From: Enterococcus pallens ATCC BAA-351
Lineage (GTDB): Bacteria > Bacillota > Bacilli > Lactobacillales > Enterococcaceae
Assembly (NCBI RefSeq): GCF_000407485.1
Contig: NZ_ASWD01000004.1
Coordinates: forward strand, 259,429 to 283,428
Length of the DNA: 24,000 nucleotides
Reading direction: 5' to 3'
In this document: positions 20,630 through 21,583 of the stretch, piece after piece
Position numbering within the stretch: position 1 is the stretch's first letter
Layout of the letters: every line of letters starts with the position of its first letter
Notes under the pieces: model-generated
The model's database searches: none
The model's input: only the letters and a program-made list of their open reading frames with translations
What the model was told of the DNA's origin: nothing
Made by a program: the position numbers and the translations under genes

Positions 20630-21583
20630 TTATACCCCTCTTGGATAATTCCTTTGTTTGTTTGGCCTTCTTGCTGGTTCTGGCTGTAGGAAATACGCCT
20701 TTAATACCAAGAAGAAACCAAAAGTAGATAACACACACACTAGACATAACCACAGATTTTCCTGCACAAAGTTTAGGACGCTGCCCATTTTGGGAATGAC
20801 AAAGGCCACTTTTCCGTAGATTCTGTCGGCGGAAATCGGCGGATCCTTACTGTTGTTGGCATCCCCTTTGGTGACAATGTAGTCGCCCTTTTCCCCATTT
20901 AGTTCATCTAAACGCTCTACCATTCTATGAGTTAGGTAACGATCACCCTCGCCCACTTGAAAGGTGACAATGTCTCCTTCTTTCACCTGACTACCATCAG
21001 TCATTTTCACTAATACAATATCCCCAGCATAAAAGCCTCGTGAAGGAGAATCCGGTTGTGGTGCCATTGAGTTAGTTAAGACTTGATAGAAGCGATAGCC
21101 AAAGATTGCCGCATCAGACTTTTCGCTAAAAGCAAACATCAAGGAACTCAATAGAATGCCAATCGTCAATGTGTAGAAAAACAAGTTGTAGATAAACAAA
21201 AAGATTTTTCTGTTGGTCGACTTTTTTGCCTCCTGCAATGGCTGTGCTGATGATGGTGGCGTCATCGGTCGTGGCGGCCGCGTACTTCGAGGTGGCGGTA
21301 TTCGCTCGCGATCATAAACGTCACCATAGGACATCTGTGATTTACGTGGTATCCGATTTGGCGAATAGTTTTCTTTATATCTCTCGTGTTGTCCTTCTCG
21401 TCTTCTTGATTCGCCGTACATTCGTTCAGTTGGTCGCTTCGGATAAGGTCTTCTATATTCTGAATACTCTTCTTCATATTCATTCCTACGATGTGGACGT
21501 CGATTGGAAGGGGGCCTTTCACCACGATAGGGCGATGTATCATATTCATAATCCCGCTCATGGTAGTCTCGTTGTCTTGGCAT
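20630..21583 (-). CDS. sipW: SipW-like (ER/archaeal-type, S26B) signal peptidase I with an approximately 126-aa Arg/Pro/Tyr/Glu-rich N-terminal cytoplasmic extension (317 aa).
   Basis: The catalytic region is VLTNSMAP...GDIVLVK...GDIVTF...YLTHRMV...VTKGDANNSKD (Ser, His and GDxN motifs of the SipW/Sec11 type). It is flanked by N- and C-terminal TM helices as in B. subtilis SipW. Start at the ATG at 21583 (GAAGGGG SD, 13 nt after the upstream stop) rather than at 21682. Confidence 0.8.
   Translation of the reverse strand: MPRQRDYHERDYEYDTSPYRGERPPSNRRPHRRNEYEEEYSEYRRPYPKRPTERMYGESRRREGQHERYKENYSPNRIPRKSQMSYGDVYDRERIPPPRSTRPPRPMTPPSSAQPLQEAKKSTNRKIFLFIYNLFFYTLTIGILLSSLMFAFSEKSDAAIFGYRFYQVLTNSMAPQPDSPSRGFYAGDIVLVKMTDGSQVKEGDIVTFQVGEGDRYLTHRMVERLDELNGEKGDYIVTKGDANNSKDPPISADRIYGKVAFVIPKMGSVLNFVQENLWLCLVCVLSTFGFFLVLKAYFLQPEPARRPNKQRNYPRGV

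Follow-up and report, generated by a model that had tools for sequence, protein, structure and literature searches.

A 24,000-nucleotide (nt) stretch of the Enterococcus pallens ATCC BAA-351 genome (contig NZ_ASWD01000004.1, positions 259,429 to 283,428; the whole stretch is referred to here as the window) encodes a signal peptidase I of the SipW type, also called the endoplasmic reticulum (ER)/archaeal type, that carries a long, positively charged N-terminal tail in front of its first transmembrane (TM) helix. The tail is predicted to be cytoplasmic and largely disordered. It is retained in all 13 copies of the gene in this genome and, as judged from sequence comparisons, is a regular feature of the close relatives of the enzyme. 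We tentatively interpret it as a flexible tether by which the peptidase is held in position. The gene and its parts are as follows.

20630-21583, reverse strand: whole gene, long SipW-type (ER/archaeal-type) signal peptidase I; open reading frame (ORF) of 317 amino acids (aa) plus stop codon.
21206-21583, reverse strand: N-terminal cytoplasmic tail, residues 1-126, as predicted from composition, charge and the AlphaFold2 (AF2) model.
21134-21205, reverse strand: TM helix 1 (TM1; signal anchor, N-terminus inside), approximately residues 127-150; Kyte-Doolittle windows above 1.6 from residues 126-135.
20762-21133, reverse strand: extracytoplasmic catalytic domain, approximately residues 151-274, with Ser172, His219, Asp241 and Asp247; predicted local distance difference test (pLDDT) scores of 83-97.
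20690-20761, reverse strand: TM helix 2 (TM2), approximately residues 275-298, from hydropathy and an AF2 helix at residues 277-298.
20633-20689, reverse strand: basic C-terminal cytoplasmic tail, residues 299-317 (19 residues); isoelectric point (pI) 11.6, net charge +3.8.

The composition of the N-terminal tail is strongly biased. Residues 1-126 include 25 Arg, 19 Pro, 15 Glu, 13 Tyr and 11 Ser residues, with just eight Ile, Leu, Val, Phe, Met or Trp residues, giving a pI of 10.0, a net charge of +10.8, a grand average of hydropathy of -2.25 and a charged-residue content of 40%. This agrees with the initial annotation of the window, which had described the tail as of low complexity, strongly charged and lacking hydrophobic segments. 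The calculated mean net charge (approximately 0.09) and scaled hydropathy (approximately 0.25) place it well into the disordered side of the Uversky boundary. In the AF2 model, which was built from an 84-sequence alignment, residues 1-116 have pLDDT values of 42-50 and no secondary structure, compared with 83-97 for the catalytic core, and residues 117-126 form a juxtamembrane helix (LQEAKKSTNRK) that continues into the membrane. With AF2 pLDDT and composition taken as proxies for disorder, residues 1-116 are predicted to be intrinsically disordered, and the hallmarks of such regions are present: low hydropathy with high net charge, low pLDDT and fast, indel-rich evolution. The extension had been put at approximately 126 residues; this length stands, while the disorder ends near residue 116 and residues 117-126 belong to the predicted helix.

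Basic residues flank both TM helices on their cytoplasmic side. An N-in/C-in topology is consistent with the basic cluster KKSTNRK immediately N-terminal to TM1 and with the basic character of the C-terminal tail that follows TM2; by the positive-inside rule the tail is therefore predicted to be cytoplasmic, as had been proposed. Residues 1-130 contain no known domain in Pfam or NCBIfam, no tandem repeat was found in the tail DNA (21206-21583) and no Rfam family was found in the whole window. Of the 4,862 genomic ORFs that are 120 aa or longer, only the 13 sipW genes and one other contain a 60-aa segment of tail composition. This other ORF (C5:97215, forward strand) encodes a 390-aa membrane protein, and is the sole other case of a basic, Pro-containing, non-hydrophobic 60-aa segment before a TM region (TM from approximately residue 96).

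The reality of the tail depends on the position of the start codon, for which the junction with the upstream gene is informative.

21584-21596, reverse strand: intergenic spacer of 13 nt between the GH73 stop codon and the sipW ATG, with a Shine-Dalgarno-like (SD-like) GAAGGGG at 21594-21588.
21597-22670, reverse strand: GH73 glucosaminidase gene, upstream of sipW; Pfam PF01832, E = 8.8e-32.

The GH73 gene ends with a TGA codon at 21599-21597 and the sipW ATG lies at 21583. The 13-nt spacing is kept in the paralogues: the junction TGA-AAGAAGGGGA-N3-ATG is common to all 13, each of which has a purine-rich, GGG(G)-containing SD-like stretch (the exact GAAGGGG in ten), and the two genes are probably translationally coupled. 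The ATG is followed in all 13 copies by the N-terminal peptide M-[PST]-R-[QTA]-[RK]. The ORF, its N-terminal sequence and the in-frame Met codons within the tail of the window copy (residues 55, 84 and 107) are as the initial annotation gave them; none of these codons has an SD-like sequence, as had also been remarked, and none is conserved. In three paralogues (C2_861082, C2_388363 and C3_763915), no in-frame ATG, GTG or TTG codon follows the conserved start before the TM helix is reached. The tail frame is open in all 13 paralogues, despite 53% differing aligned positions and many in-frame indels, and it is also open across the indel-rich tail in more than 100 homologues. On this comparative evidence translation must initiate at the ATG at 21583, the start that had been preferred from the outset. 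The longer version suggested from an upstream ATG at 21682 is not upheld: the codon is a GTG that the paralogues do not share, their open frame upstream of the ATG being only 7 to 56 codons long. The notion of an annotation artefact, with translation starting near the TM helix and the tail being an untranslated leader, draws on the three internal Met codons of the window copy and has practically no chance of being correct, given the lack of SD sequences and conservation at these codons, the paralogues without any internal start, the SD, ATG and peptide motif kept in 13 of 13 copies, the open frame in the homologues and a dN/dS ratio below 1 (see below).

The remainder of the protein is predicted to be an intact SipW/Sec11-type signal peptidase I, because it matches TIGR02228 (ER/archaeal-type signal peptidase I; residues 135-288, 71 bits against a cut-off of 51.85), retains invariant residues, has two TM helices (AF2 extends the helix covering TM1 over residues 117-153) and has SEC11 proteins as structural neighbours. 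Ser172, His219, Asp241 and Asp247 show no variation in alignments of 26 and 84 homologues. The Ser172/His219/Asp arrangement is of the Ser-His and not the Ser-Lys type, and was matched by motif context to the triad described for Bacillus subtilis SipW (Ser47/His87/Asp106; PMC8767453). A Foldseek search of the PDB with the AF2 model gave human SEC11C and SEC11A as the top matches (7p2q_A and 7p2p_A, with E = 1e-5 and 9e-4; target-normalised template-modelling score of 0.60). The score against NF046067, the SipW-Bacillus equivalog model of 189 positions, was 58.7 bits, below the equivalog cut-off of 190, and the window protein is accordingly classed as a SipW-type enzyme and not as an ortholog-level SipW. 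Against Pfam the whole protein gave nothing significant, and its C-terminal 191 aa gave S24/S26 matches below threshold. Proteins of similar length have already been deposited under the name 'signal peptidase I'. Directly downstream of sipW are three BsaA-family genes that match TIGR04090 ('SipW-dependent'), and from this gene context the predicted role of the enzyme is to cleave the products of the adjacent BsaA-type/LPXTG fibre genes.

The genome (5.44 Mb in 13 contigs) contains 13 full-length paralogues of the window gene with 58-80% identity (tblastn), which allow the constraint on the tail to be assessed. None of the 13 has lost or shortened the tail. The tails are 119-146 aa long, with 25-32 Arg, 18-25 Pro, 9-15 Tyr and 3-11 hydrophobic residues and a net charge of +7 to +16. 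The positive charge is concentrated in the membrane-proximal half, which is polycationic (+5 to +13) and Pro/Arg-rich; the distal half is a near-neutral (net -1 to +5), Asp/Glu-Tyr-rich polyampholyte. The mean p-distance (proportion of differing positions) is 0.53 for the tail versus 0.14 for the core. The dN/dS ratio is 0.17-0.49 (median 0.29) in the tail versus 0.02-0.06 in the core, and the dN of the tail is approximately nine times that of the core; these are rough estimates from seven usable paralogue pairs, in which dS is unsaturated but high and the alignment of the indel-rich tail is uncertain. Because the tail dN/dS is below 1 in all usable pairs, we infer that the region is coding and under weak purifying selection, as is usual for disordered regions. 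Weakly conserved islands are found at residues 1-10, 21-33, 93-106 and 117-126, with the motifs MxRxRxxR at the tip, RPPSNRRPxRR, PPRxxRPxRP and juxtamembrane AKKST. The comparison indicates that selection keeps the presence, length, charge and composition of the tail together with these few short islands.

The tail is not confined to this genome. A homologue search of 5.8 billion proteins gave 168 matches, nearly all from Enterococcus and mostly 300-330 aa long, and a second, profile-based search returned mostly the same Enterococcus matches again. Of the 116 listed homologues in which the catalytic motif and the TM helix could both be located, 110 carry a tail 60-190 aa in length (median 124), with a positive net charge in every case (+3 to +28), and the exceptions mostly resemble truncated contigs or shifted start calls. 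Remoter Enterococcus tails are rich in Lys, Ser and Asn instead of Arg, Pro and Tyr. The core by itself (residues 121-317), used as the query in an exhaustive HMMER search of 1.84 billion cluster representatives, gave 10,731 matches at E <= 0.001. Among the best 150 of these 10,731, which represent clusters at 50% identity, at least 40 aa precede the TM helix in 123 (82%; median 93, maximum above 300); 31 of these long tails are basic, 57 are acidic and 35 are of other composition, some of them Q/P/Y-rich. Basic tails are present in Carnobacterium gallinarum, Vagococcus allomyrinae, V. fluvialis, Enterococcus larvae and Enterococcus sp. BWR-S5, and long tails of mixed flavour in metagenome-assembled genomes (MAGs) of Oscillospiraceae and other Clostridia; more distant homologues from Ruminococcus albus and R. 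flavefaciens have just 6-40 residues before the TM helix. Tail lengths in relatives range from approximately 40 to approximately 400 aa, and Pfam recognised no domain in ten tails of other flavours taken from relatives. Of the 134 genomes searched in the host's family (the host's own included), 37 encode a relative at E <= 1e-20, with 13, 16 and 9 copies in three species and 1-4 in the others. In the host genome TIGR02228 detects 13 long and four short copies above the cut-off, the four short genes having N-termini of approximately 1-30 aa.

On these counts the long tail is the rule in the sub-clade of the window protein and not a one-off, although it is absent from the characterised B. subtilis SipW and from more distant relatives. 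The view that it is unusual consequently holds against B. subtilis SipW but not within its own clade, where it is the norm. The feature is solid and widespread, and is not unique to the window gene. Full-text literature searches turned up no account of such N-terminal tails on enzymes of the SipW type, nor any of SipW in Enterococcus.

One sister group (P0127, P0128, P0129, P0138, P0175, P0226, P0244 and others) has acidic tails of 70-220 aa with an LFxDDPELLALL-like motif at approximately residues 9-14. This motif is present in 21 of the best 150 representatives, compared with 0.02 expected from shuffled sequences, starts within the first 14 residues in 19 of its 21 carriers, is covered by no Pfam domain and looks like an undescribed docking motif. 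A related-locus search with the single protein P0128 found nothing. Judged by isolate names, many tail-bearing relatives (L018-L039, L044, L072 and L090) appear to come from the guts of insects or other invertebrates, including termite-gut Oscillospiraceae MAGs, V. allomyrinae and E. larvae; a Breznakia sp. in the same list of loci is tail-less, with a 3-aa N-terminus. The names hint at an ecological link. Another match, P0111, is filed under 'Erwinia sp. CPCC 100877' and has 61% identity to the window protein over 61% of the query; a Gram-positive fibre gene of the Enterococcus type would hardly be expected in Erwinia, and the assembly may be contaminated or mislabelled.

Our preferred reading, to which we assign a probability of roughly 0.4, is that the tail tethers the peptidase flexibly, placing or docking it, and has no part in catalysis. 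A role in cleavage is discounted because the catalytic site is on the opposite side of the membrane. The tether is favoured because the bulk properties of the tail are kept, because a conserved tip and juxtamembrane segment surround a variable linker and because the sister flavour has a sharp tip motif. The cationic membrane-proximal half would bind anionic surfaces, which could be anionic-lipid secretion microdomains or a polyanionic partner such as the translating ribosome/Sec machinery, and the better-conserved tip would dock a protein partner; fibre precursors would thereby be cleaved where they are exported and assembled. There are precedents for both kinds of surface: streptococcal secretion foci are reported to be enriched in anionic lipid (PMC3781834), and the basic cytoplasmic tails of YidC-family insertases to contact ribosomes (PMC8595059). 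Docking is preferred over charge alone because the LFxDDPELLALL sister group is built in the same way, with a tip motif and then a linker, here variable and acidic, leading to the TM helix.

Several points count against the tether. Close relatives have acidic or Q/P/Y-rich tails, so positive charge is not a universal requirement, and the electrostatic part of the mechanism may be limited to the Enterococcus/Vagococcus/Carnobacterium branch. The tip motif of the window protein is not common to the more distant basic tails, and the mean majority fraction is 0.39 in the tail versus 0.80 in the core. Finally, the dN/dS estimates come from the seven pairs described above, with dS near saturation and an uncertain, indel-rich alignment.

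Some of the remaining readings of the tail involve genes that surround sipW, of which three are listed here.

22660-22974, reverse strand: 104-aa protein with two TM helices and an Arg/Pro-rich (RP) C-terminal tail; ORF.
12675-13481: resolvase-like helix-turn-helix (HTH) protein, membrane-tethered.
11899-12657: OmpR-type regulator.

The window gene is part of a 12-gene cassette of approximately 12 kb (window positions 11899-24000) that is present in 13 copies in the genome with identical gene order (C1:73.7k; C2:369k/388k/404k/823k/841k/861k/1060k; C3:764k; C4:280k/312k; C5:40k; C9:72k). The first part of the cassette consists of a 165-aa ORF, a P-type signal peptidase, the 104-aa RP-tail protein, GH73 and the long SipW; there follow a 445-aa BsaA-family protein, an LPXTG protein, BsaA-family proteins of 293 and 214 aa, a 1076-aa protein and the resolvase-like and OmpR-type genes. 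The TIGR04090 matches are the 445-, 293- and 214-aa proteins. The 13-fold repetition of the cassette is arguably more striking than the tail in this region. The lowest mean pairwise p-distances (0.10-0.19) are those of the 165-aa ORF, the body of the RP-tail protein, the SipW core and the resolvase-like gene, and the most divergent product is the 1076-aa protein (0.71). The tail of the 104-aa protein is the second cationic cytoplasmic tail of the cassette, with a p-distance of 0.41 among the 13 paralogues compared with 0.10 for the body of the protein. Two distant tail-bearing relatives keep a sub-module of a long SipW, a large BsaA-family protein, an EF0750-like LPXTG protein and a second BsaA-family protein; one of these two loci lies directly after ecfA-ecfA-ecfT-truA and has no GH73 or second peptidase upstream.

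Three further observations concern the cassette and its host genome. A weak terminator-like hairpin (20611-20628, reverse strand; 7-bp stem with three G-C pairs, followed by a T/A-rich run) occupies part of the 40 nt that separate the sipW stop codon from the 445-aa BsaA-family gene, and may be an attenuator between the 'machinery' and the structural genes. In the paralogues C2:388363 and C2:1060196 the dS of the core (0.60) is much lower than that of the tail (1.69) and the C-terminal tails are identical, a pattern that suggests mosaic gene conversion between cassettes. The loci C6:65.9-68.8k (L016) and C1:663.7-666.4k (L017) each contain two short SipW-type peptidases (162-210 aa, N-termini of approximately 1-30 aa), which flank a 283-291-aa protein without a family match and an EF0750-like LPXTG protein; by gene content, these loci are a distinct, tail-less fibre module of the host genome. 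A link between the presence of the tail and the LPXTG partner was ruled out, since the short-SipW loci of the same genome also encode EF0750-like LPXTG proteins.

A regulatory role, which the initial annotation had suggested in the form of a signalling or partner-recruitment module and which is still a hypothesis, is an unlikely alternative. Either by itself or together with the basic C-terminal tail, the N-terminal tail would bind or sequester the resolvase-like HTH protein or the OmpR-type protein, and the status of export or assembly would be coupled to transcription of the cassette, in the manner of the second function of B. subtilis SipW. The two regulator-like genes are kept in 13 of 13 cassettes, and in a review (PMC8767453) a non-catalytic cytoplasmic part of B. 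subtilis SipW is described as activating matrix genes on surfaces. However, the same review, citing Terra et al. (2012), places the activity in the C-terminal 20 cytoplasmic residues and not in an N-terminal domain, so the precedent invoked in the initial annotation does not extend to the N-terminal tail; the C-terminal tail of the window protein matches those 20 residues in position. Among the 13 cassettes the tail distance tracks that of the resolvase-like gene (rho = 0.54) and not those of the intervening structural genes (rho = -0.09 to 0.07), but similar values are obtained for GH73 (0.60), the SipW core (0.55) and the 165-aa ORF (0.45), which may reflect a shared history of the 'machinery' genes as opposed to recombining structural genes, and all of these values come from non-independent paralogue pairs without a significance test.

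It is also rather improbable that the tail has no specific partner and is a weakly constrained disordered spacer, in which only being long and non-hydrophobic matters and composition drifts by lineage. Such a spacer might work as an entropic bristle, help to set topology or expression level, or provide a buffer where the membrane is crowded. The very fast, indel-rich evolution of the tail relative to the core, the radically different charge flavours of close relatives and the absence of a recognisable domain from any tail examined are what a spacer would lead one to expect. Set against these are the dN/dS ratio below 1 in every usable pair, the full-length tails in all 13 paralogues even though internal start codons arise easily, the positive net charge of 110 of 110 long Enterococcus tails and the sharply conserved tip motif of the sister flavour.

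We are more doubtful of ribosome or RNA binding as the sole function. By analogy with the C-terminal tails of YidC2/Oxa1, the Pro/Arg-rich segment would bind translating ribosomes and couple precursor synthesis to the site of cleavage; in this the enzyme would parallel the signal peptidase complex that is associated with the translocon in eukaryotes. The net charge of about +11 with 25 Arg residues, the Pro/Arg-rich runs in the membrane-proximal half and in the tail of the 104-aa neighbour, and the structural proximity of the core to SEC11 of the human signal peptidase complex are all compatible with this, and the basic C-terminal cytoplasmic tails of YidC-family insertases are reported to contact ribosomes (PMC8595059). 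Nevertheless, the argument is one of analogy, the acidic tails of the sister groups would be unable to bind ribosomes electrostatically and SipW-type enzymes are not known to cleave co-translationally. There is a slimmer chance that the tails act as multivalent Arg/Tyr 'stickers', through which peptidases would self-associate or co-condense with partner tails (for example the 104-aa RP tail) into assembly hubs on the cytoplasmic face. As an equally speculative extension, each fibre line would owe an address of its own to the fast divergence of the tails between the 13 cassettes, and parallel cassettes would be kept from mixing their subunits. If true, this would amount to a condensate-like sorting principle for the biogenesis of Gram-positive surface fibres.

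The usual picture of a SipW-type peptidase is that of a minimal enzyme of approximately 190 aa. A sizeable clade, found in Enterococcus, Vagococcus, Carnobacterium and insect-gut Clostridia and tied to BsaA/LPXTG fibre modules, instead has disordered cytoplasmic tails of 40-400 aa. That these tails are under selection, with a conserved tip motif in one branch, implies an unrecognised cytoplasmic input into the processing of fibre subunits, in the form of localisation, docking or regulation. This bears on how Gram-positive cells organise secretion and surface-fibre assembly in space.

Among known systems, B. subtilis SipW (tapA-sipW-tasA operon) resembles the window protein in being of the ER/archaeal type, with Ser-His(-Asp) chemistry and N- and C-terminal TM helices, and in being dedicated to matrix-fibre subunits encoded alongside it. 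It differs in its size (approximately 190 aa) and short N-terminus, to which the window protein adds a disordered N-terminal tail of approximately 120 aa. The sipW-bsaA-bsaB-bsaC locus of Clostridium perfringens, which is reported to produce a SipW-dependent biofilm matrix fibre (PMC7395162), encodes substrates of the same family (BsaA, TIGR04090) as those adjacent to the window gene. Compared with that locus, the enterococcal cassette adds an LPXTG protein, GH73, a P-type signal peptidase, the two-TM RP-tail protein, the 1076-aa protein and two regulators, and it is present in 13 copies in the host genome.

The comparison with eukaryotic enzymes is structural. We know of no long cytosolic tail on SEC11, and the cytosolic mass of the signal peptidase complex comes from accessory subunits. 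In the window protein, for which SEC11A and SEC11C (7p2p and 7p2q) are the best structural matches, the catalytic polypeptide carries a cytosolic appendage of its own. The basic C-terminal tails of YidC2, Oxa1 and Alb3 are also cytoplasmic, disordered and polycationic, and they too are attached to a membrane protein that works in export, but they belong to another protein family and to the opposite terminus, and offer a functional analogy only. Further counterparts are the uncharacterised tail-bearing peptidases of Vagococcus, Carnobacterium, other Enterococcus species and Oscillospiraceae MAGs, which share the core (39-66% identity), a long extension before the TM helix and, where examined, the downstream large BsaA-family protein, EF0750-like LPXTG protein and second BsaA-family protein. 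They differ in the flavour of the tail, which is Lys-rich in more distant Enterococcaceae and either acidic, with the LFxDDPELLALL tip, or Q/P/Y-rich in many other clusters, some of these acidic and Q/P/Y-rich tails being from insect-gut Oscillospiraceae MAGs.

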